Below, piece by piece: positions 888 through 9,744 of a stretch of 9,744 nucleotides of DNA. The first letter of the stretch is position 1. Every line of letters starts with the position of its first letter. The notes under the pieces are model-generated. The model did no database searches. It worked only from the letters and a program-made list of their open reading frames with translations, and had not been told where the DNA came from. Source of the DNA: a virus (Duplodnaviria; Heunggongvirae; Uroviricota; Caudoviricetes); the IMG/VR virus record IMGVR_UViG_3300026224_000017; one strand, written 5' to 3'. Position numbers and translations under genes: made by a program.

Positions 888-1510
888 TTTTGAATCACCG
901 TTGTTGCATAGGAATAAATAAAAGGGAGTTTTACATATTTCTGGTCAATGGCATCTTTCAGAAAATAGCCTATACCATCGCCATACTCTGGTATCTGAAT
1001 AGAAAAAACGCTGTCCGATACTGTCACACTCACATCAAAAGTGTGCTGCAACGGCGGGTCTATTCCGTTTTTTCCATGAATGAACCGCGCCACACGTCGC
1101 TTTAACCAGTCAATGCAGAAATGCGAACCGTCAGCCTTATAAAAATTCCACGTTAATATTCGTTTGAAATAATCATCAGGTACATACGATGCCTGCCCCG
1201 GAACATAATTCCGCATTGCCGCATAAGGGATTGTATTGTATTCAATGGTATCGTATGCGCCGCGTGCAATAGCCTCCTCGGAAACCTGTAGTAAAGGCCT
1301 TTCAACGCCATAAATCCCGAGTGCAATCCAGTCCAGCAATTGCCCGGTTATTGATTCCGATGTCCAGCATGGCAATGCCAGATTGTTGAGTGAATCGAGG
1401 TATTCCTGAGCAATTTCATTGTATGCATCAAAGAACGCAACAACATTCGGATCATCTCTGTACTGCACAAATGGATAAGCAGGGAGAATTTTCTCAGTCA
1501 GATATTGCAT
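884..1510 (-). CDS. Baseplate wedge/tail protein, P2 gpI / Mu gp48-like (DUF2313-type), ~208 aa
   Basis: The six-frame ORF is 884-1618, but its first ATG would overlap the upstream gene by 125 nt. The internal ATG at 1510 (MQYLTEKILPAYPF...) has an AGGT about 8 nt upstream and overlaps the J-like stop by only 17 nt. Size, N-terminal pattern and position after J fit the I/gp48 family. Its stop overlaps the fiber start. Confidence 0.55.
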   Translation of the reverse strand: MQYLTEKILPAYPFVQYRDDPNVVAFFDAYNEIAQEYLDSLNNLALPCWTSESITGQLLDWIALGIYGVERPLLQVSEEAIARGAYDTIEYNTIPYAAMRNYVPGQASYVPDDYFKRILTWNFYKADGSHFCIDWLKRRVARFIHGKNGIDPPLQHTFDVSVTVSDSVFSIQIPEYGDGIGYFLKDAIDQKYVKLPFIYSYATTVIQK

Positions 1511-2720
1511 ACTTGTTGACCTGAACCTGTGATGCCACCGTTGAAAAATAGGAATAGGTATCGCCATAAACCAGGCTTGTGTCTTTCGCCGGAAGAACAA
1601 TATGGCCGTTAATACCAATGCTCACACTGATTGTTGAGATCAACGTCGCATCAACCAGCAACCTGACGGAACTGGTAAAAATATCCTGGATACGCAGAAG
1701 ATTTATCGGGTGTCCGACTTCAATTGAATTGATGTAATCAGCAACGTTTTGCTGCACAGCCATAGCAATACCCGCCGGATCAACATAATCATCAGACACC
1801 GTGTTCCAGGTGATTAGCACCATGACGTTTTGTGATGACGGGATAACGAACGGCACCTGATAAACGTCCGGTGAAACGGTTATTGAAACCGTGCGTTTTT
1901 CCACTGCCGCACCGGATGGATTGCTAACATCGTTGGTCAGTTTCGAAATATCCGGTACAGATTTGTAAATCGCATAAGCCACATCATACGGATCACCGCC
2001 ACCAACAACCGCAACCCATTTCCCCAGCGACGACTGCCGGAAAGAAATCAGGTTTTCTCGCACACCGCTTACTGATTTGAGCATCGCTTTAAAGCAATCC
2101 GGTGTTCCCTGCACACCAAACATGCCGGACTCCATAACTTCGGCGCGATATGATGCCCATGTCTGCGCCTCCTGACCGGGCATACCTGCGGTAAGGTTCG
2201 TGCATTTTACAGGCTGGTCTTTGGGTACTGATGTAATGACCTGCGTTACAGTCCCTTCCGGTACAGCCCATGAGCCTGACGTTGTGGCCACACAGTAGAC
2301 TGGCTCAGTCTGCCCGCTTTCCGGTACCACCGTATCGCGGGAAACCGCATACTGGTAGTTACCATCTCCAACCACAAATCCTTTAGGGATACCAAACCCC
2401 GGCAACGCCTCAAACACCACGTATACCGCCGTATTTGTACTTAATCCCTTCTGTGCTCCATAAATGTTTCCGAGTTGCATCAGTAACGGAATATTTGCGC
2501 CGTATGGGCTTACGGAGTTAATAAGGTCCACCCGCGCCTGGTCTATTAATGCCAGCGCCCCGACTGCCGTGCTGGCAAGGTCTGTAATAAGTCCCGCAGG
2601 AAGGTTGGCTGTATATCCAGGTACTTTTTCAGCAACTCTGGTGATAAGATTTGCGAGCAAATCATTGGGTGGCGTAGGCTGCGCACCCGCACTGGTCATA
2701 GTAATTGGTATTTCTGACAT
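1494..2720 (-). CDS. Baseplate J-like protein (P2 gpJ / Mu gp47 / T4 gp6 family), 408 aa
   Basis: 408-aa ORF. The N-terminal third (NDLLANLITRVAEKVPGY ... ANIPLLMQLGNIYGAQKG ... PGFGIPKGFVVGDG) follows the conserved pattern of baseplate J family proteins. It is followed by an I-like gene and a fiber gene. No Shine-Dalgarno is visible upstream of the ATG at 2720. Confidence 0.65.
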   Translation of the reverse strand: MSEIPITMTSAGAQPTPPNDLLANLITRVAEKVPGYTANLPAGLITDLASTAVGALALIDQARVDLINSVSPYGANIPLLMQLGNIYGAQKGLSTNTAVYVVFEALPGFGIPKGFVVGDGNYQYAVSRDTVVPESGQTEPVYCVATTSGSWAVPEGTVTQVITSVPKDQPVKCTNLTAGMPGQEAQTWASYRAEVMESGMFGVQGTPDCFKAMLKSVSGVRENLISFRQSSLGKWVAVVGGGDPYDVAYAIYKSVPDISKLTNDVSNPSGAAVEKRTVSITVSPDVYQVPFVIPSSQNVMVLITWNTVSDDYVDPAGIAMAVQQNVADYINSIEVGHPINLLRIQDIFTSSVRLLVDATLISTISVSIGINGHIVLPAKDTSLVYGDTYSYFSTVASQVQVNKYAISD

Positions 2721-2757
2721 ATTTATTTATCACTTGAATACATTATAAGGAGATATA

Positions 2758-3234
2758 ATGCGGTTCTATTTCAACAAAAAAGGTCTTTCTGGTATTTCTG
2801 TATCAAGCGGAAGGAGTAGTGGTGGCTGTGGAACATTAATTGGAGTTGTCTTTATACTTTATTTAATTGGCCATTTTTCATCACCTTCCGATGAAGATAT
2901 TAAAAATGAATCATCATCTTATAAGACAGCAGTCGTTAAAAGCGACAAAATAATTTCCGAAATCTGCGATCAGTTTAGCACTGATGATTCCGCAAAAATA
3001 TTTTTTAATTCAAATCTAAACAAACATTGGTATAAAACAAAAGTTAAAGTAAATTCACTATCAGATCAAAGATTATCTGCGATTGATTTCAAAAATCCAG
3101 AATTAAAGTATGAAATAAGAATGTCTGATTCAAGACCATTAAGAGTAGGGGATATTATTTCCGTTGAATTTGTACCTACTGAATTCAGTAAGTATTCATG
3201 CGAAATCAGTGGCACAATAGGTAAGTACAAGTAA
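2758..3234 (+). CDS. Hypothetical membrane-anchored protein (single N-terminal transmembrane helix, ~120-aa C-terminal domain), 158 aa
   Basis: Strong RBS AAGGAG 5 nt before the ATG. A basic N-terminus is followed by a hydrophobic helix (TLIGVVFILYLIGHF) and then a K/S/D-rich domain. The gene is very AT-rich (sampled stretches about 20-35 percent GC) and ends 4 nt before an intrinsic terminator. No recognisable family by eye. Confidence 0.6.
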   Translation: MRFYFNKKGLSGISVSSGRSSGGCGTLIGVVFILYLIGHFSSPSDEDIKNESSSYKTAVVKSDKIISEICDQFSTDDSAKIFFNSNLNKHWYKTKVKVNSLSDQRLSAIDFKNPELKYEIRMSDSRPLRVGDIISVEFVPTEFSKYSCEISGTIGKYK

Positions 3235-3238
3235 CCTC

Positions 3239-3272
3239 AAAAAAAACAGCCCGCTGAACGCGGGCTGTTTTT
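3239..3272. terminator. Bidirectional rho-independent terminator shared by convergent genes 2758-3234 and 3271-3660
   Basis: A-run 3239-3246, 8-bp GC-rich stem cagcccgc (3247-3254) / gcgggctg (3260-3267), 5-nt loop, T-run 3268-3272. The A-run/T-run flanks make it functional in both orientations. Confidence 0.75.
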
Positions 3273-3660
3273 AATATACGCCACGAATAAGATCTTGGGT
3301 AAAAACATCACATCCTTCGCTACCTAATTGCAGTCTTTTCTTAAAGTACTCAATAATACCGTCATTATGAACGCCATTTTTGGAAATTTTTAACCACGTA
3401 TTGCTCCATTCTATACTTTGGAGTTTTGTTAAAGCCGCTTTTTCATTTCCTTCACTAACCAAGCGACACGATTCTGATAGTTGATCAGTTACAATCATTT
3501 CATTTCTCATATGCTGAAGCAATTGTCGCTGTTCTTCGCTTAAAGTAACATCTTGATTAGTAATGAGTCTTTCTGATTTTTCAATTGGCGTACCAATCGC
3601 ACACCAAGAGACGAATAAAATTGTAAATAAAGGGAGTGTAATTTTTATACTGACCGACAT
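3271..3660 (-). CDS. Hypothetical secreted/periplasmic protein with N-terminal signal sequence and two cysteines in the mature part, 129 aa
   Basis: ATG at 3660 is preceded by GAGG with a 5-nt spacer; the GTG at 3666 suggested by the ORF track sits inside that Shine-Dalgarno. The N-terminus MSVSIKITLPLFTILFVSWCAIG has n, h and c regions of a Sec signal peptide. AT-rich (about 33 percent GC in a sample). The stop overlaps the terminator T-run. Confidence 0.6.
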   Translation of the reverse strand: MSVSIKITLPLFTILFVSWCAIGTPIEKSERLITNQDVTLSEEQRQLLQHMRNEMIVTDQLSESCRLVSEGNEKAALTKLQSIEWSNTWLKISKNGVHNDGIIEYFKKRLQLGSEGCDVFTQDLIRGVY

Positions 3661-3689
3661 AATCACCTCATTATCAAATGTTCATGCGG

Positions 3690-3717
3690 ATTTTATCAAC
3701 GGTTTCCCTCTATTCAA
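3690..3717 (-). promoter_or_regulatory. Candidate sigma70 promoter for gene 3271-3660
   Basis: On the minus strand: -35 TTGAAT (3717-3712), 16-bp spacer, -10 TAAAAT (3695-3690). Predicted start near 3683, about 23 nt upstream of the ATG. Found by eye only. Confidence 0.35.
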
Positions 3718-3724
3718 ATCAGAC

Positions 3725-3752
3725 TTTACATCCATGAGCTATTGAGTATGAT
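3725..3752 (+). promoter_or_regulatory. Candidate sigma70 promoter for the antirepressor-like gene, back to back with the minus-strand promoter
   Basis: -35 TTTACA (3725-3730), 16-bp spacer, -10 TATGAT (3747-3752). The two -35 elements are 8 bp apart, a typical divergent promoter layout. Found by eye only. Confidence 0.35.
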
Positions 3753-3979
3753 TATGCGCATGAGGCGTCGAAACCTCTTTCACGCGGCCTAGACCAACCC
3801 CGTCAGTGTTGGATTTTTTATGCCTACAATTCAGTGATGGCACAATGTGCGGTCACATCCCCGATCAATGTCGGGAGGGCGACGAATACAACACCCGAAA
3901 GGGAAATAAGTCCGCGGTTTCGTGAAGCCGTTTCGAACCTCCTGGCACCACAATTTCGAAAAAATTTCACGAGGTTTCT

Positions 3980-4537
3980 ATGACCAGCCAATTAATTCCC
4001 GTATTCAACGGCATTGTTTCAAACGAAACTACCCTTCTCTGCAACGCTCGCGATCTGCACACCTTTCTCGAAGTAGGTAAACGCTTTGCTACTTGGATCA
4101 CCGAGCGAATCGGCGAGTATGAATTCATAGAAAATCAGGACTACATAGCTATTTCCCAAAAACGGGAAATAGGTCACGGACGAGGGAAAAAGGACTACCA
4201 CCTCACCCTGGACACCGCCAAAGAACTGGCAATGGTCGAGCGCAACGAAAAAGGCCGCCAGATCCGCCGATACTTCATCGAGTGCGAGAAGAAGCTGCGC
4301 GAGGATACCACCAGCACACAATCCCCTCTGAATGTTGACATCATCATGCGCGTCAGAAACGGCTCGGTTACCCACATTGAGCACCACAAATCAGGCTCAG
4401 TTATAACCACAGAATGGGCAATTCACTTACTACGCAAAAGTGGATGGATTGTCATGCCACGCGATGAACTTCTTAACACGCCACTGGCCCAACTGATGCC
4501 CGAAAATTTGACTCAAACCGGAACCTGCGTCCGGTAA
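3980..4537 (+). CDS. Phage antirepressor-like protein (AntA/AntB-type N-terminal domain), 185 aa
   Basis: GAGG 5 nt before the ATG. The N-terminus (LIPVFNG ... ARDLHTFLEVGKRFATWITERIGEYEFIENQDY) and central segment (LTLDTAKELAMVERNEKGRQIRRYFIECEKKL) match the pattern I associate with AntA/AntB antirepressor proteins. The C-terminal ~70 aa are not recognisable. Confidence 0.6.
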   Translation: MTSQLIPVFNGIVSNETTLLCNARDLHTFLEVGKRFATWITERIGEYEFIENQDYIAISQKREIGHGRGKKDYHLTLDTAKELAMVERNEKGRQIRRYFIECEKKLREDTTSTQSPLNVDIIMRVRNGSVTHIEHHKSGSVITTEWAIHLLRKSGWIVMPRDELLNTPLAQLMPENLTQTGTCVR

Positions 4538-4860
4538 CTGGTCCCATTAAAAAACACAACATCGATGTTATAGGTGGGGTTCTCTGCCCCATCTACCTTT
4601 GAAATTGCCAGCGATGCAAAATACCCGGCAAACTGTTGCTGAACCATGTTCACATAGTAGTCCGGGTAAATTTGCTGCACGATGCACTGCTGCGCTGGAA
4701 TGCCGTAATTCGCGTAAAACGGCGACTCCCCCAACCCCAGCTTTAACGTCTGAATGAGCGTCGTCAGCCAGCCGTAGGAGAAATCACCGCTGGCGTCAGA
4801 TTCTACAGCAACCCATTTTTTGTTGCCGTTCGCGTCGGTGACGCGGCCCCATGTTCTCAT
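4513..4860 (-). CDS. Baseplate wedge protein, gp25 / P2 gpW-like, 115 aa
   Basis: Contains GESPFYANYG, which fits the G-x-x-P-F-x-x-x-[FY]-G core of gp25/W proteins (compare T4 gp25 GSRPFDPEFG). Size matches P2 gpW (115 aa). It lies between the spike and J genes. Its ATG is 3 nt after the stop of the preceding small ORF. Confidence 0.5.
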   Translation of the reverse strand: MRTWGRVTDANGNKKWVAVESDASGDFSYGWLTTLIQTLKLGLGESPFYANYGIPAQQCIVQQIYPDYYVNMVQQQFAGYFASLAISKVDGAENPTYNIDVVFFNGTSYRTQVPV

Positions 4861-4863
4861 GCG

Positions 4864-5028
4864 TCAACCTTTCAAGTAAATTAGGGTACCGGTAGCCAGA
4901 GCGGTACAAATGATCCACGCTACTGGAGTCAGAATATGCCGAATACCCTGACATACTGCGATTATTCTCGCAGCCTTATCAGCTCCTTGTGGGGTTGTCT
5001 CAGCCTTAAGAATCAGTTCGCTATCCAT
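4864..5028 (-). CDS. Hypothetical small protein with C-terminal transmembrane helix, 54 aa
   Basis: Translation verified by hand: MDSELILKAETTPQGADKAARIIAVCQGIRHILTPVAWIICTALATGTLIYLKG. Its ATG overlaps the stop of the upstream small ORF (ATGGATAG), and its TGA is 3 nt before the W-like ATG. Not in the ORF track, presumably because it is under the length cutoff. Confidence 0.35.
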   Translation of the reverse strand: MDSELILKAETTPQGADKAARIIAVCQGIRHILTPVAWIICTALATGTLIYLKG

Positions 5029-5188
5029 TTAGAACCTTTATGATCTCTGCGATTCCCGGAAGCGATTTAGCAACTGCAAACCCTCCGATAACTATAAGAA
5101 CTGCATAAAACATTCTTCTCAGAACCGGACTTCTTTCGAGCAATTTTAGAGCTTCCACAATCCAGTCTCCTCCGCTAAAATTAATCAC
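5021..5188 (-). CDS. Hypothetical small membrane peptide (single hydrophobic helix), 55 aa from GTG or 30 aa from the internal ATG
   Basis: GTG at 5188 is preceded by GGAGG (5199-5195) with a 6-nt spacer. Translation: VINFSGGDWIVEALKLLERSPVLRRMFYAVLIVIGGFAVAKSLPGIAEIIKVLNG. It lies downstream of the hairpin at 5244-5275 and is coupled to the next ORF. Confidence 0.35.
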   Translation of the reverse strand: MINFSGGDWIVEALKLLERSPVLRRMFYAVLIVIGGFAVAKSLPGIAEIIKVLNG

Positions 5189-5243
5189 GGAAGACCTCCA
5201 AACATACGTAATTATCCCTTGCCTTATTCAAGGTCAGAAACAG

Positions 5244-5275
5244 AAAGCCCCGACTGTTTGCCCAGTCGGGGCTTT
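5244..5275. terminator. Strong GC-rich stem-loop (terminator- or attenuator-like) just downstream of the spike gene
   Basis: 13-bp perfect inverted repeat aaagccccgactg (5244-5256) / cagtcggggcttt (5263-5275) with a 6-nt loop. Flanking sequence is moderately T-rich on both strands. It sits about 38 nt after the stop of the 5314-6027 gene. Confidence 0.5.
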
Positions 5276-5313
5276 CGCTTTATGGATAGAATTTAAAGTG
5301 AAATGAACCGGTA

Positions 5314-6027
5314 TTAACCCGGATTTGGTTTCTTTGACGTGATCGTGCTGTTGCCGCTTTGAACCCCAGTCACATCGTGGCTGTGACCGCTGGCGCTGAC
5401 ACCTTTTATCATCGCGTCGTTTTGCACAGTAAGCGGGCCAATCAGCGAAGCGGTTGTATCCTTCATCTGGGCTTTGTCCTGGACGATCGGTCCGTTGAGG
5501 TGAATTTTCCCGTTCAGGAAAATATCTTCGGCCTCGAGGTAAACAGCTTTCGACTTTTGCCTGATTTCTTCCGGTGCCACCGTTACCGAGCTACTGCCGT
5601 CCTCTGTTTTGAGGATCGCGCCATCCGGACCGTACAAAACGATCTTTTGCGGATCTTCGTCGGACCAGTCCTTGTTTGCCAGTGGCACGAAAAACAGTGG
5701 AGTGAGCGACATCGAGTAAGAGAGCGTCGCCATACCGGTTCCCAATCCGGACACACCGCGCAGGGATACATCAGCGGCAATTGTTACTCCTCGATCGCCC
5801 GGCTGTATCGGGTAACGAATATACGGGAATGTGGCGACAGGGATTGTTATCTGCGGAAAGTTGATCCCCTCCGGCAGCATATCAAACTGAACTGTCACTA
5901 TCTGCCCGCTGACACCGACAACATGGCAGGGCAATTCACGACCTTTAAGCTCGGCTTGCTGGTTACCAGAACTGGTCATCATCTCCGACAGCGTTCGGAG
6001 AAACGGTAATTTTTGAGCGTTTGACAT
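5314..6027 (-). CDS. Baseplate spike protein, P2 gpV / Mu gp45-like, 237 aa
   Basis: Size and position match. The C-terminal region has a His-containing apex-like motif (GHSHDVTGVQSG) and a Gly/Ser/Thr-rich beta-type sequence, as in gpV-type spikes. Its start overlaps the stop of the upstream hub-position gene. Confidence 0.6.
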   Translation of the reverse strand: MSNAQKLPFLRTLSEMMTSSGNQQAELKGRELPCHVVGVSGQIVTVQFDMLPEGINFPQITIPVATFPYIRYPIQPGDRGVTIAADVSLRGVSGLGTGMATLSYSMSLTPLFFVPLANKDWSDEDPQKIVLYGPDGAILKTEDGSSSVTVAPEEIRQKSKAVYLEAEDIFLNGKIHLNGPIVQDKAQMKDTTASLIGPLTVQNDAMIKGVSASGHSHDVTGVQSGNSTITSKKPNPG

Positions 6028-7034
6028 TACACCCTCGCCCAGTTCTCAGCATATGCCTCAAATACCGTCACCCAGGCATCGCCATCGGCTGTCAGATACG
6101 AACCAATGTGTCTGACCGATTTCACAAGAAATTTCCCGGTGAACGTGGTCGAATTTTTTGCGATAACGCTGGGTGCCGTTGTATTAGCCATCACAATCGA
6201 CGCAGCACCTGAATATAGCCCCTCCGGCAGTTTAACCACATCACCACATCTGATATCGCCCCTCATAGGGCATTTGAAGCTGACGGTAAACGGCGCTATC
6301 CATGTCGGCTGCCCGACCAGTTCATGGGCATGAATTGTTTTTGGCTCACCCCACTTTGCCGATGCGTTATCGTAGATTCGTATTCTGTCGGAAAGAATAC
6401 TGATGGCGATTCCGCTGTATTTCTCATCGCGCATCATTGCAATTGAAGCACTACGGAGGACCATAGCCAGCGAACCAATATCTTCGTAGGTTCCATTCCA
6501 CGGTTCCGGCAAAACGAGGCTGTCGCTGACAGTACAATCGATCAACTTATTCGGAAATGCCTTTTGCAACGCACGGGAGATTACATCACCAACCTTTTCC
6601 CCTTTAAGCCCCTCCCCCTCGATAGAGAACGGTTTACCATCATCTGTTTTGCGTACGGTTGGATTTATTACCAGGTTTAAGGTCTGGTTCGTGCCGATCC
6701 AGTTGGCATAGGCCAGATAAATTTCGCCATAAATAACCTCACCCTGTTGCTGTGGATTTGCCAAAGGCAATCCCTCAACAAAGCCCGCTTTCATACGGAC
6801 CAGACACCCCTGCAAACTCACGCTTTGCTTCAGCATGTCGATAGGCAAACCGTATATTGTGAGCATCGTTCCTGAATTCACTACATCAAGACCCGCTACC
6901 TCCACATCAAATTCAACATGTAGCCCACACCCGGGGGTTTTACTGGTATCAAAAGGCCCGATAGGTTTACCGTTGCAATCCACTGGCGGCTTGCCTGTTT
7001 TAGGATTGATGATTTCCAGTCGGTAATAGCGCAT
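6027..7034 (-). CDS. Tail protein in the baseplate hub position (gpD-like by gene order), 335 aa
   Basis: Translationally coupled to both neighbours (TAATG overlap at 7034, 1-nt overlap at 6027). It sits immediately upstream of the spike gene, as hub proteins do. The assignment is positional; I cannot confirm family membership by eye. Confidence 0.45.
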   Translation of the reverse strand: MRYYRLEIINPKTGKPPVDCNGKPIGPFDTSKTPGCGLHVEFDVEVAGLDVVNSGTMLTIYGLPIDMLKQSVSLQGCLVRMKAGFVEGLPLANPQQQGEVIYGEIYLAYANWIGTNQTLNLVINPTVRKTDDGKPFSIEGEGLKGEKVGDVISRALQKAFPNKLIDCTVSDSLVLPEPWNGTYEDIGSLAMVLRSASIAMMRDEKYSGIAISILSDRIRIYDNASAKWGEPKTIHAHELVGQPTWIAPFTVSFKCPMRGDIRCGDVVKLPEGLYSGAASIVMANTTAPSVIAKNSTTFTGKFLVKSVRHIGSYLTADGDAWVTVFEAYAENWARV

Positions 7035-7968: not shown

Positions 7969-9441
7969 TTACCCCGGTATTTGTTGCGTTCCGGCGAGTT
8001 GTGCCAGTATGTCGGAACCCGGCGATTGTCGCACCTGAAGCTCAATTATTGCGCGGGCATTTTTGCCAGCACCCTGAAGATTATCTCTGGCATTTCTTAG
8101 CTGATTCATAATACCAGGGTGTTGATCCAGGGCTCCCTGAATCTGAGGCAATAATTTAATTAAATATTTTACAGTCTCCATTCTCAAACTTAGATTTCCA
8201 TCTCTATCAATACGACCTCCGTTATATGCCGTAAGCATTTTTGCCACATCGCCTTTATAACGCCGATTCAGATCATTTAAAAAGCGGCCAGCCGCAAGAG
8301 TGGATTTATTTGGGTCATAAACATCATCACCCACCAGACCATACTGTTTTGCGGTGCTATCCCAGAATTGCCACAACCCCTTAGCGAATCTACCTTTTTC
8401 ATCAGGAGTTCCTCTTGCCAGAGGATTCCACGAAGATTCAACTTCTGCGATAGCTGACATCATATTTTTAGGAAGTCGATAAGTATTATTGGCTTGCTCT
8501 ACAAAGTTCTGAATATTTCTCTTTAAATCATTAGGCATACGGTAATTTTTATATACATCATCCTGTTTATAAAACTCACCCGTATACTGATTTGTCATCG
8601 GGTTTGCTCCCGGCAACGCACCACCGAGATATTTATTTCCAAATGCCGCAAGAACTGGATCTGCCTGTTCAGCACCAACTCCGGTTCCGGGGAGATATTT
8701 ATCTTCCCCACCGATCCATTTGATAGCTGACCATATTGCTTTTGCAATCCGGCTCACCGCCAGAGAAAAATCGTCAAGATCATTTTTAAATTGTTCGCTA
8801 TTCAGCCACTTACCAAGTTTCTCCAGCCCTTCGCCAGCCTCAGCGAGAATTTTCTGAAAATTTCCACCATTCAGAAAACCTTCAATATTGGATGTCAGCC
8901 CATCAGATGCACCTGTGATTAGTGGGTTATATCTGGCGAGAGCTGCATACCAGGAATTTGATATTCTGTTTCCATTTACCATCAGGTTACTCACCGTATC
9001 CTGATAACCTGACTGCATAGCTGGCGTGAGGTAAGCACCGAGCAACCTAGTATTTGATGCAAATTTCTCGTTCAGTTGGGGGATCTTGTCCAGATTCGCT
9101 TCCACCTGGTTAGTTGTCGCGACATCAACAAATCCAAGCCCTTGTCCGTTGAGAATCCCCTGAGTAAGTCCTGAACCTTTATATTGCTTAACGAGAGATG
9201 CAAGCGCGCTCATAAGTTTGGGCAGATTCTTTGCTGCACCATCTCGAGGATCAATTCCAAGACTGACCAGACCAGCATAGTTTGGATCATTTGGATTTTT
9301 CTGTGCGTTCGCCAGATGCTGAACCAGTTCTTCTGTGCCAGAAAAATATGGCGAATAGGTGGCACGTGCGGCCTGCATCTGTGCGGTTTCCATACCCAGC
9401 CCCTGAGCCACGCTGTATTGCGCTGCAACCTTGCTCGCCAT
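7969..9441 (-). CDS. Tail-associated protein with lytic transglycosylase (SLT) domain, probably tape measure or tail lysin; at least 490 aa
   Basis: Clear SLT catalytic region AIAEVESSWNP ... GLWQFWDSTA ... TAYNGG (approximately 8200-8480), verified by back-translation. The first ATG is at 9441, but the same frame stays open upstream to 9651 (about 70 more codons) with no canonical start codon. Confidence 0.7.
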   Translation of the reverse strand: MASKVAAQYSVAQGLGMETAQMQAARATYSPYFSGTEELVQHLANAQKNPNDPNYAGLVSLGIDPRDGAAKNLPKLMSALASLVKQYKGSGLTQGILNGQGLGFVDVATTNQVEANLDKIPQLNEKFASNTRLLGAYLTPAMQSGYQDTVSNLMVNGNRISNSWYAALARYNPLITGASDGLTSNIEGFLNGGNFQKILAEAGEGLEKLGKWLNSEQFKNDLDDFSLAVSRIAKAIWSAIKWIGGEDKYLPGTGVGAEQADPVLAAFGNKYLGGALPGANPMTNQYTGEFYKQDDVYKNYRMPNDLKRNIQNFVEQANNTYRLPKNMMSAIAEVESSWNPLARGTPDEKGRFAKGLWQFWDSTAKQYGLVGDDVYDPNKSTLAAGRFLNDLNRRYKGDVAKMLTAYNGGRIDRDGNLSLRMETVKYLIKLLPQIQGALDQHPGIMNQLRNARDNLQGAGKNARAIIELQVRQSPGSDILAQLAGTQQIPG

Positions 9442-9666
9442 ATATCCGTACCCGAAAGCACCGACCGAACCAAGCGCCGCAATTTTGCTCCCCCAGGATA
9501 CAGTCGTTTTAAACAGCGTTTTCAGTCGTGAATTGGTCGTTTTAAGCGTTGAATTGATCTGCTTGTAAGTTTTCAGCGTCCCCTGAGCGTTTTTACCCAG
9601 ACTACTGAGATACTTATCAAATGAACCGCCCCGGGTTTCCTGGAGAGTGTTTTATCTGTGAACTCA

Positions 9667-9744
9667 GGCTGCCAGATCAGTATTTCCGATGGAAGCATAA
9701 TAAGCTTTTTCTGCTTCTGCCGGAGGAATATGGCCCAGCCTTTC
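9667..9744 (-). CDS. C-terminal end of an upstream tail-module gene (partial; start lies beyond the right edge)
   Basis: Open frame from the window edge ending ...AEKAYYASIGNTDLAA at TGA (9666-9664), followed in the same frame by a second stop TAA (9654-9652). Identity unknown; tape measure N-part or tail chaperone are the candidates. Confidence 0.35.

Follow-up and report, generated by a model that had tools for sequence, protein, structure and literature searches.

A recurrent cargo slot in a prophage baseplate operon and a candidate RNA-controlled antirepressor cassette within it

The window analysed here, a 9,744-nucleotide stretch of viral DNA (Caudoviricetes; IMG/VR record IMGVR_UViG_3300026224_000017), is a Rac-SA53-like Escherichia coli prophage in which three genes, orfA, orfB and ant, separate two conserved genes of the tail operon. 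Across the whole block, identity to phage Rac-SA53 and to prophages of E. coli chromosomes is 94–98%. The insert is flanked on the left by a conserved gene for a 115-aa protein in the gp25/W position (4513–4860, minus strand; phrog_7986, function unknown), and on the right by a gene of the baseplate J/gp47 family (1494–2720, minus strand; PF04865 at 8e-8 and phrog_6, baseplate wedge, at 4e-38). From the J start codon (2720, minus strand) to the stop codon of the 115-aa gene (4513), the insert spans 2721–4512 and measures 1792 bp, in agreement with the gap of about 1.8 kb given in an initial annotation of this DNA. We read the locus as a fixed cargo slot that holds two envelope modules and an RNA-controlled antirepressor cassette, and we put the probability of this overall reading at roughly 0.6.

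The three open reading frames (ORFs) are as that annotation had them. orfA (2758–3234, plus strand) is divergent from J, is preceded by an AAGGAG Shine–Dalgarno (SD) sequence and encodes a 158-aa bitopic membrane protein. orfB (3271–3660, minus strand) lies on the tail-gene strand and encodes 129 aa from an ATG that follows the SD sequence GAGGTG; an alternative GTG start at 3666 would yield 131 aa. The third gene, ant (3980–4537, plus strand), which like orfA is antisense to orfB, encodes a 185-aa protein of the antirepressor family with an AntA domain at residues 22–89 (PF08346, E = 1.8e-27, 96.2 bits against a gathering cut-off of 27); it matches PHROG anti-repressor families at E values up to 7e-67. 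The gene ends in a 25-nt tail-to-tail overlap with the 115-aa gene. The insert had been described as an AT-rich island. This is true of orfA (31.9% GC) and orfB (34.9%), with 33.4% for 2721–3700 overall, compared with 49.4% in J and 51.7% in the 115-aa gene, but it does not apply to the ant half, where ant has 49.5% and the intergenic region 3661–3979 has 45.8%. The lower bound of 20% given at the time was also too low, as the lowest 200-nt windows reach 27%.

A fixed slot for accessory genes between the 115-aa gene and J

The junction was surveyed in 91 loci, comprising 11 genomes, 77 viral contigs and three annotated records, in each of which J accompanies a gene for a relative of the 115-aa protein. 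Intergenic distances span 0–3135 bp, and 13 junctions are empty (0–61 bp), all of them in more distant relatives, whose 115-aa proteins show 51–90% identity. Most empty junctions (48–61 bp) consist of a GC-rich hairpin and a T-run, followed by the J ribosome site GGAG. This hairpin constitutes an intrinsic-terminator-like site within the late operon, immediately 5′ of the J ribosome site (L007, L071, L078–L082, L084, L085 and L087); the junction of L004 lacks it. The remaining 78 junctions are occupied (304–3135 bp) and, together with the window, display 36 architectures and about 23 credible cargo families, 15 of which open with an N-terminal signal or anchor segment. ant is present in 30 of the 91 loci. 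The variation is bounded sharply, running from directly after the stop codon of the 115-aa gene to the J ribosome site. Cargo on the tail strand sits upstream of the native hairpin, which stays before J; cargo on the opposite strand abuts J directly.

The commonest alternative cargo (22 loci; L003, L029–L054) is a stand-alone protein with the HSDR_N nuclease domain of type I restriction enzymes. It is a single protein of 372–391 aa, with HSDR_N at the N-terminus (5.6e-14) and an uncharacterised C-terminal half; PADLOC gave no match to it, and we regard it as a candidate for single-gene defence. In L058, L066, L067 and L095, the space between ant and the 115-aa gene holds a YafO-toxin gene (PF13957) and, upstream of it, a gene for a 190-aa partner. 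Another cargo protein is named an LprI-family lysozyme inhibitor by the Prokaryotic Genome Annotation Pipeline (PGAP), and the remaining cargo includes many small ORFs. Seven other cargo proteins of the slot had no match in PADLOC-DB 2.0.

Relatives are thus either empty at this position or carry differing cargo, and the junction is therefore an accessory hotspot and not a structural part of the operon: a fixed moron slot in the baseplate operon of an enterobacterial contractile-tail prophage family, whose tail genes do not need the slot cargo. The contents are apparently swapped between phages by recombination in the conserved flanks. An integrated mobile element (insertion sequence (IS), transposon or satellite) was ruled out, since the insert in the window has neither terminal repeats nor an ORF for an integrase, transposase or recombinase; its only repeats are short and at chance level. 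The proposal of an accessory insert of mixed foreign origin is borne out by the 13 relatives in which the two genes adjoin and by the quite different cargo elsewhere, the opposite of three genes kept as conserved components of related tail modules. From its place inside the baseplate gene block, the insert might be taken for conserved baseplate assembly or structural accessory genes, which is scarcely credible: the relatives without it, and those with unrelated genes in its stead, contradict the idea, and two of its three genes lie on the opposite strand.

As a hotspot, the slot is a known kind of thing, that of morons; what is novel in our reading is the RNA element upstream of ant. The morons of lambdoid phages, reportedly described by Juhala et al. 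in 2000 and Cumby et al. in 2012 (HK97 and HK022 morons, lambda bor and lom, and the HK97 exclusion protein gp15), are likewise extra genes that sit between conserved late genes, are absent from relatives, deviate in base composition, bring a terminator of their own and in many cases code for small envelope proteins that the prophage expresses. On these points, the insert shows adjacency of its flanks in relatives, deviant GC for orfA and orfB but not for ant, and a clear terminator, with promoter-like sites at chance frequency. The present site, between the gene in the W position and J of a contractile-tail module, is in contrast not described in the literature searched, the turnover of about 23 cargo families is very high, the proteins are unrelated in sequence to those of the lambdoid morons, and expression from the prophage is here a prediction. 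A similar arrangement, one conserved position with many alternative cargos that include nucleases and toxin–antitoxin pairs, is said to have been found by Rousset et al. in 2022 in the fixed-position defence hotspots of P2- and P4-like prophages, but the cargo here has no catalogued defence match and consists mostly of small envelope proteins.

Within the slot, orfA, orfB and ant are three independently assorting modules, and the idea of a single three-gene island has to be given up. The arrangement of the window recurs identically in L001, L016 and L055, and the orfA–orfB DNA is found in one of 5426 complete E. coli genomes. Salmonella loci L095–L099 carry orfA without orfB; the Salmonella orfA homologues (71–79% identity) adjoin J and are followed by an unrelated 200-aa ORF, and one other Salmonella locus holds both genes together. 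More distant relatives of orfB occur without orfA, either alone or beside other genes (L076, L086). ant and its upstream region are combined with at least nine other cargos, and ant with its leader is also found in the early region of Shiga toxin (Stx) phages, at 77% identity from window position 3762 onward. Independent assortment rules out that orfA and orfB form an obligate pair or a toxin–antitoxin system.

It could still be argued that the three genes were imported as one superinfection-exclusion or prophage-protection unit similar to immI/sieA, as they occur together in the window and in three other loci, and as in P22 ant lies next to sieA within the late region. We consider this unlikely in view of the independent assortment, the differing GC contents and the existence of ant and its leader as a separate module in Stx phage early regions. 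The likeness to P22 that had been suggested survives in part. In both cases a self-regulated antirepressor cassette is found in the late (tail) region beside membrane proteins with a presumed role in exclusion, and ant does have a dedicated RNA that resembles a translational controller. However, the domain is AntA and not P22_AR_N, orfA and orfB have no similarity to SieA, and there are no Mnt/Arc repressors and no sar next to ant: none of the small ORFs near ant is Arc/Mnt-like or has a Pfam match, and the sole sar-like match is sub-threshold and 1.2 kb away. No repressor gene was found in the window, and no LexA box, which would have fitted an SOS-controlled antirepressor, was found near ant.

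Two putative envelope proteins and their shared terminator

In the orfA product, a basic N-terminus (residues 1–23) is followed by a hydrophobic helix (residues 24–40, approximately) and a beta-rich C-terminal domain, which according to the positive-inside rule would face the periplasm. The AlphaFold2 (AF2) model has a predicted local distance difference test (pLDDT) score of 59 overall and of about 75 for residues 92–155, and a comparison with viral structures (BFVD) returned nothing significant. The family comprises only three clusters among 5.8 billion proteins. A weak match is to phrog_8815 (E = 0.0037), a PHROG of unknown function; the tRNA_anti-like membrane or lipid-anchored OB-fold proteins (PF12869) were considered as a possible family.

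The orfB product has an N-terminal signal-like segment. Its homologues at 60–66% identity show the canonical lipobox LLSGC, where the copy in the window reads VSWC. An exhaustive profile search gave 14 representatives among 1.84 billion clusters, all small and unnamed proteins. The four cluster representatives with a named source are from Erwinia/Winslowiella and Serratia, which together with E. coli and Salmonella places the family in the Enterobacterales only. Its members carry a canonical lipobox or Sec-type signal and two conserved cysteines, because of which the family fits a periplasmic or outer-membrane lipoprotein. The orfB model is helical (pLDDT 63) and has no structure matches; the possibility of an LprI/DUF1311 lysozyme inhibitor found no support in Pfam or NCBIfam matches. 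For both orfA and orfB, word-indexed homologue searches returned close relatives only. In PADLOC-DB 2.0, orfA, orfB and ant had no match at E up to 1, and the earlier statement that none of the three products falls into a characterised defence family holds for the Pfam, NCBIfam and PADLOC searches.

Judged by their substitution pattern, orfA and orfB are real genes under purifying selection, because the ratio of nonsynonymous to synonymous rates (dN/dS) against diverged copies is 0.13–0.24: this is the range for orfA versus its Salmonella homologues, and the value for orfB is 0.22, with dS up to 1.4 among the diverged E. coli and Salmonella copies. The two could otherwise have been taken for decaying or spurious ORFs in the AT-rich junk of a defective prophage, given an IS in a tail gene, the tiny families and the occurrence of the cassette in a single complete E. 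coli genome; the purifying selection across both genera, the strong SD sites on both genes, the conserved cysteines and the signal sequences make this very improbable.

orfA and orfB converge on an intrinsic terminator, as had been proposed. It lies at 3242–3272 and is a perfect repeat with 13-nt arms (3242–3254 and 3260–3272), flanked by an A-run and a T-run, and therefore bidirectional. Its fold reaches −22 kcal/mol on the plus strand (z = −5.0) and −29 kcal/mol on the minus strand (z = −6.8), which none of 200 shuffles matched. A pattern scanner did not call it, probably owing to the A/T runs that extend the stem. For orfB, a promoter-like site is predicted at 3690–3717 on the minus strand (TTGAAT, 16 nt, TG-extended TAAAAT; 9 of 12 matches plus the TG). 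With their AT-richness, strong ribosome sites and shared two-way terminator, orfA and orfB would probably be expressed from the resting prophage, and the terminator would insulate them in the lysogen. Late transcripts, probably driven by a Q antiterminator such as that annotated in Rac-SA53, would have to cross it to reach J, which a Q-modified polymerase could do.

The orfA product would thus be anchored in the inner membrane, its small beta domain presumably pointing toward the periplasm, and the most likely role of both proteins would be in the envelope, either to block adsorption or DNA entry of other phages or to alter the lysogen surface in another way. As no family matches either protein, function has to be read from location and context, and these make superinfection exclusion plausible. 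Small envelope proteins encoded in prophage tail operons are the classic format of exclusion factors such as HK97 gp15, Cor and Llp, and host-fitness factors such as Bor come in the same format. Cor (phi80, N15) and Llp (T5) offer a functional analogy for orfB, being small outer-membrane lipoproteins of prophages, encoded beside tail genes in the case of cor, although neither sequence nor fold similarity to orfB was detected and the lipobox of orfB is degenerate in the window. Alternatively, orfA and orfB could be lysogenic-conversion genes that aid the host in its animal niche, for instance by serum or envelope-stress resistance as with lambda Bor and Lom, and that have no anti-phage role. 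Small envelope-located proteins would suit a toxin-carrying prophage of the Rac-SA53 type (LT-IIa) from porcine and bovine enterotoxigenic (ETEC) and Shiga toxin-producing (STEC) E. coli, and the slot elsewhere holds the PGAP-named lysozyme inhibitor. Neither protein, however, shows similarity to Bor, Lom or virulence families, and the stand-alone HSDR_N nuclease and the YafO toxin pair among the cargo point to conflict functions; we see this alternative as a genuine possibility, but not as the probable one.

The sRNA-Xcc1 leader of ant

A promoter-like site for the ant leader is found at 3725–3752 on the plus strand (TTTACA, 16 nt, TATGAT; 10 of 12 matches), and its TATGAT hexamer is kept in several leader alleles. 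The start predicted from it, at about 3759, coincides with 3762, the left edge of the ant module common to the Stx phages. Together with the site for orfB, it forms a back-to-back pair (3690–3717, minus; 3725–3752, plus). The divergent promoter region that had been proposed here is hence plausible in position, but the region as a whole contains five promoter-like sites against 5.0 expected by chance.

The leader opens with a small hairpin, GAGGCGUCGAAACCUC (3762–3777), which is conserved in all alleles, followed by the word t1, UUUCACGCGG (3778–3787), and a weak terminator-like hairpin, CCAAC...GUUGG with a U6 run (3794–3819), which is likewise conserved in all alleles. Further downstream, at 3870–3954, lies an sRNA-Xcc1 element (RF02221; 69.7 bits against a gathering threshold of 53, E = 7e-13, model positions 1–87), which consists of a closing stem, hairpin 1, hairpin 2 (3914–3930), a junction and the sequence ACCAC. 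The loop of hairpin 2 (3918–3926) reads UUUCGUGAA; the junction, UUUCGAA (3931–3937), directly follows hairpin 2, and ACCAC (3947–3951) follows the closing stem and takes the form NCCAC in all enterobacterial alleles seen. An additional conserved hairpin, GUGAUGGCAC/GUGCGGUCAC (3834–3856), can be read from the sequences upstream of the Rfam element. Because both of its sides are changed in the Rac-SA53 allele, to GUGGUUGCA/UGCAACCAC, conservation of the RNA may extend beyond the 87 nt of the Rfam model.

sRNA-Xcc1 was found upstream of every intact ant examined, in the window and in 16 loci that include Salmonella, Stx phages and one locus with a different antirepressor. The element ends 25 nt upstream of the ant start in the window and 25–45 nt upstream across the intact ant genes. 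One of the 19 matches in all precedes a second element instead of a gene. L066 has two elements in tandem. There was no match in the two loci scanned that lack ant, nor in L015, where ant has no 5′ end.

Between the element and ant, the stretch 3954–3974 holds two sequences complementary to it. The first, UUUCGAAA (3954–3961), is complementary to the junction. The second, t2, UUUCACGAGG (3965–3974), contains the SD sequence GAGG (3971–3974), and its segment UUCACGAgg (3966–3974), just before and into the SD sequence, is complementary to the loop of hairpin 2; t1 is a further copy of this target word. Loops and targets change together between alleles, as in ACUUGUA/UACAAG, UCUUUUUGC/GCAAAAAGA, CCUCACUGA/UCAGUGAGG, CUCGUUGA/UCAACGAG and UUUGUUUGU/ACAAACA. 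The helix between loop and ribosome site was assessed by a register-free duplex analysis; MAFFT had set the variable loops and targets in different registers. For the allele in the window, the cognate duplex has −10.0 kcal/mol and the best non-cognate one −5.1 kcal/mol. Among 12 alleles of the close family, loop and t2 gave a mean of −11.4 kcal/mol for cognate and −5.4 kcal/mol for non-cognate pairs, and loop and t1 gave −11.3 versus −8.0 kcal/mol, values reached in 0 of 20,000 permutations each, in a test that treats related alleles as independent. Thus, the loop of hairpin 2, t1 and the ribosome-binding region show three-way co-variation at the level of sequence. The junction also has a co-varying partner, 8–15 nt upstream of the target (UUCUGAA/UUCAGAA, UUUUGAG/CUCAAAA), so that a single interrupted helix between the 3′ half of the element and the ribosome-proximal part of the leader is possible.

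These observations suggest RNA control of ant translation, in which the pairing is read from co-variation and the effect and its direction are our proposal. The ant mRNA would start about 220 nt upstream of the gene and would comprise first a short terminated 5′ segment and then the folded sRNA-Xcc1 element. The loop of hairpin 2 and the junction would pair with the stretch around the ant ribosome site, presumably leaving Ant untranslated by default. t1 would compete for the loop, possibly as an anti-antisense switch, whether on the same RNA or on a separate short RNA. With loop/target pairs that differ between phages, this control would be specific to the allele, in the manner of the c4 RNAs of P1 and P7.

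In its logic, the regulation of ant thus appears to resemble that by P1 c4 or Gifsy-1 IsrK rather than that in P22 immI. In P1 and P7, c4 RNA is encoded upstream of icd-ant and is required for full repression of ant (PMC8198154). As in the leader described here, a structured RNA lies just upstream of ant on one transcript, its loops are complementary to the ribosome-binding region, the loop/target pairs vary by phage, a copy of the target word is found upstream, and an NCCA-like sequence follows the closing stem. Citron and Schuster are said to have reported in 1990 that the c4 loops base-pair with the ribosome-binding region, are not the same in P1 and P7, and are matched by complementary copies upstream. 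P1 has an a1b1/a2b2/a′b′ arrangement, and a tRNA-like 3′ end makes the c4 precursor a substrate of RNase P. ACCAC resembles a tRNA discriminator base plus CCA, which hints at RNase P processing as in P1 c4. The leader of ant differs from the P1/P7 system in having no icd-like coupling ORF, in using one loop and a junction instead of two loops, and in lying in the tail operon of a lambdoid-type prophage.

In Gifsy-1, translation of AnrP is switched by competition between the short terminated IsrK RNA and a read-through mRNA for an internal partner (PMC4825925). The shared feature with the IsrK-orf45-anrP operon is a short terminated RNA at the 5′ end of an antirepressor-like operon; there, the read-through mRNA is translationally inactive and the short RNA competes for its internal pairing partner, whereas here orf45 is missing and the competitor, t1, is a mimic of the ribosome-site target to which a separate folded element is complementary. 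The Rfam model of C4 (RF01695) found no match in 3660–4000 at E up to 1, and that of isrK found none here either; because of this, we regard the resemblance to c4 and IsrK as one of logic and not of demonstrated homology.

Two pattern scans of IMG/VR yielded 140 unique sRNA-Xcc1 elements. About 110 of these have an ORF start 60–110 nt after hairpin 1, and in most elements the target ends 5–11 nt upstream of the start codon. Representatives of the downstream genes carry six N-terminal domains of the antirepressor class: AntA, ORF6N, Bro-N, Phage_pRha, P22_AR_N and KilA-N. In a subset of 47 elements whose loops have no common 6-nt word, the longest cognate Watson–Crick run is mostly 6–8 nt, against 3–4 nt for non-cognate pairs, and duplex energies are −8.5 versus −3.8 ± 2.2 kcal/mol, with 0 of 20,000 permutations reaching the observed value. 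For 29 of the 47 loops, the cognate start region is the best partner. Across loci L001–L300, loop, t1 and ribosome-binding region (3762–3974 in the window) were seen to co-vary through dozens of loop alleles and all six domain classes, which makes the element a conserved leader of antirepressor-class genes.

In the literature searched, sRNA-Xcc1 was already on record in front of symE in integron cassettes of Xanthomonas and in front of an ORF6N gene in APSE phages, with no mechanism attached. Other work treats it as a trans-acting small RNA (sRNA) controlled by HrpG/HrpX and as cargo of vesicles (PMC2996969, PMC12189769). On that description, the element would be a free-standing sRNA with targets among host or plant genes, the role proposed for it in Xanthomonas and Xylella, and its complementarity to the start of ant would be incidental. 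This is improbable, as changes of the loop are matched in the start region downstream, through dozens of unrelated loop sequences, the target lies at a fixed distance from the start codon, and the element is found on the same strand upstream of SymE, ORF6N and six antirepressor-type domains. We lean instead, somewhat beyond an even chance, toward sRNA-Xcc1 as a standard allele-specific translational controller of phage antirepressor-class genes and not a virulence sRNA. On this view it would act as an "immunity RNA" of the c4 type: the hairpin-2 loop would cover the ribosome site of the downstream gene, the t1 decoy would be the switch, and the loop/target alleles would define compatibility classes among co-resident prophages; the baseplate slot would then be one site to which such secondary-immunity cassettes travel. 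A search for literature linking sRNA-Xcc1 to antirepressor control found none, but was incomplete and hence no proof of novelty.

Surrounding genes, counter-evidence and implications

The tail genes of the window lie on the minus strand and begin with a tape-measure-like gene with an SLT domain (7969–9441 and beyond; PF01464). Three conserved genes come after it, one of which encodes the baseplate hub (6027–7034, minus; phrog_196); a V-like gene (5314–6027, minus) and two small ORFs then precede the 115-aa gene. J is followed by a gene for a 208-aa protein and the beginning of a tail-fibre gene. The contractile tail assumed in the initial annotation agrees with the phrog_196 hub and follows from Rac-SA53, the closest phage, whose genes include one for a tail sheath (phrog_205, 2e-54); Rac-SA53 itself is a prophage that carries an annotated Q antiterminator and LT-IIa toxin genes. 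The label "W-like" for the 115-aa protein fared less well, as size and position alone back it. Sequence gives no support for an assignment to gp25/W: Pfam has no GPW_gp25 match even at E up to 10, and no Protein Data Bank (PDB) chain was matched, at the same E limit, by a profile built from 11 homologues. Homologues of the protein extend to metagenome-assembled genomes of Burkholderiales, Rhizobiales and Bryobacterales.

A second variable site lies between the V-like gene and the 115-aa gene (4861–5313). In Salmonella relatives (L097–L100), it holds a gene for a Rha-type regulator (PF09669 and PF10549); in the window, it contains just two short ORFs, 54 and 55 aa long and with no family match, and, on the plus strand, the sub-threshold sar-RNA-like match mentioned above (5218–5279, 24 bits against 43). 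Homology of the tape-measure-like gene to its relatives extends past 9441 and ends at 9621. The last 123 nt (9622–9744) are the end of a multi-copy element of the IS3 family that occurs in 4090 of 5426 E. coli genomes; the gene is therefore interrupted, and its ORF lacks the first ~170 codons. The prophage of the window is probably defective through this insertion. The record of the Actinobacillus phage vB_Apl-pPE4 (PP818812.1) shows 94% identity over 66% of the E. coli prophage tail module, an unexpected likeness for a phage with a Pasteurellaceae host.

Several points weigh against the reading of the locus given at the outset. As to the RNA, the permutation tests overstate independence, the alleles being related, and the case is carried by the number of distinct complementary pairs. 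Folding programs do not predict the pairing between loop and ribosome site, which would be of the pseudoknot type or in trans, and in the minimum free energy (MFE) fold of the leader, the SD sequence and AUG are paired with the 5′ hairpin region instead. Judged by sequence, the pairing between loop and ribosome site could repress or activate, and could act in cis or in trans. As to the envelope modules, orfA and orfB match no exclusion or defence protein in Pfam, NCBIfam, PADLOC, PHROGs or solved structures, both structure models are of low confidence, the lipobox of orfB is non-canonical in the window, and a consensus scan found no promoter-like site for orfA, such sites being no more frequent in the region than chance predicts. 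Finally, in a prophage that is itself perhaps defective, ant may have been left with no repressor to act on.

The hotspot provides a precise and recurrent insertion slot in widespread enterobacterial contractile-tail prophages, including the toxin-carrying prophages of ETEC and STEC, and it could be mined for exclusion candidates among its small envelope proteins, the stand-alone HSDR_N nuclease and the toxin–antitoxin pair. If the proposed role of sRNA-Xcc1 is true, it would give a mechanism to an Rfam family for which there have been only indirect functional suggestions since 2010–2011, and it would predict specificity classes. It would also explain how many prophages hold a dangerous antirepressor silent.

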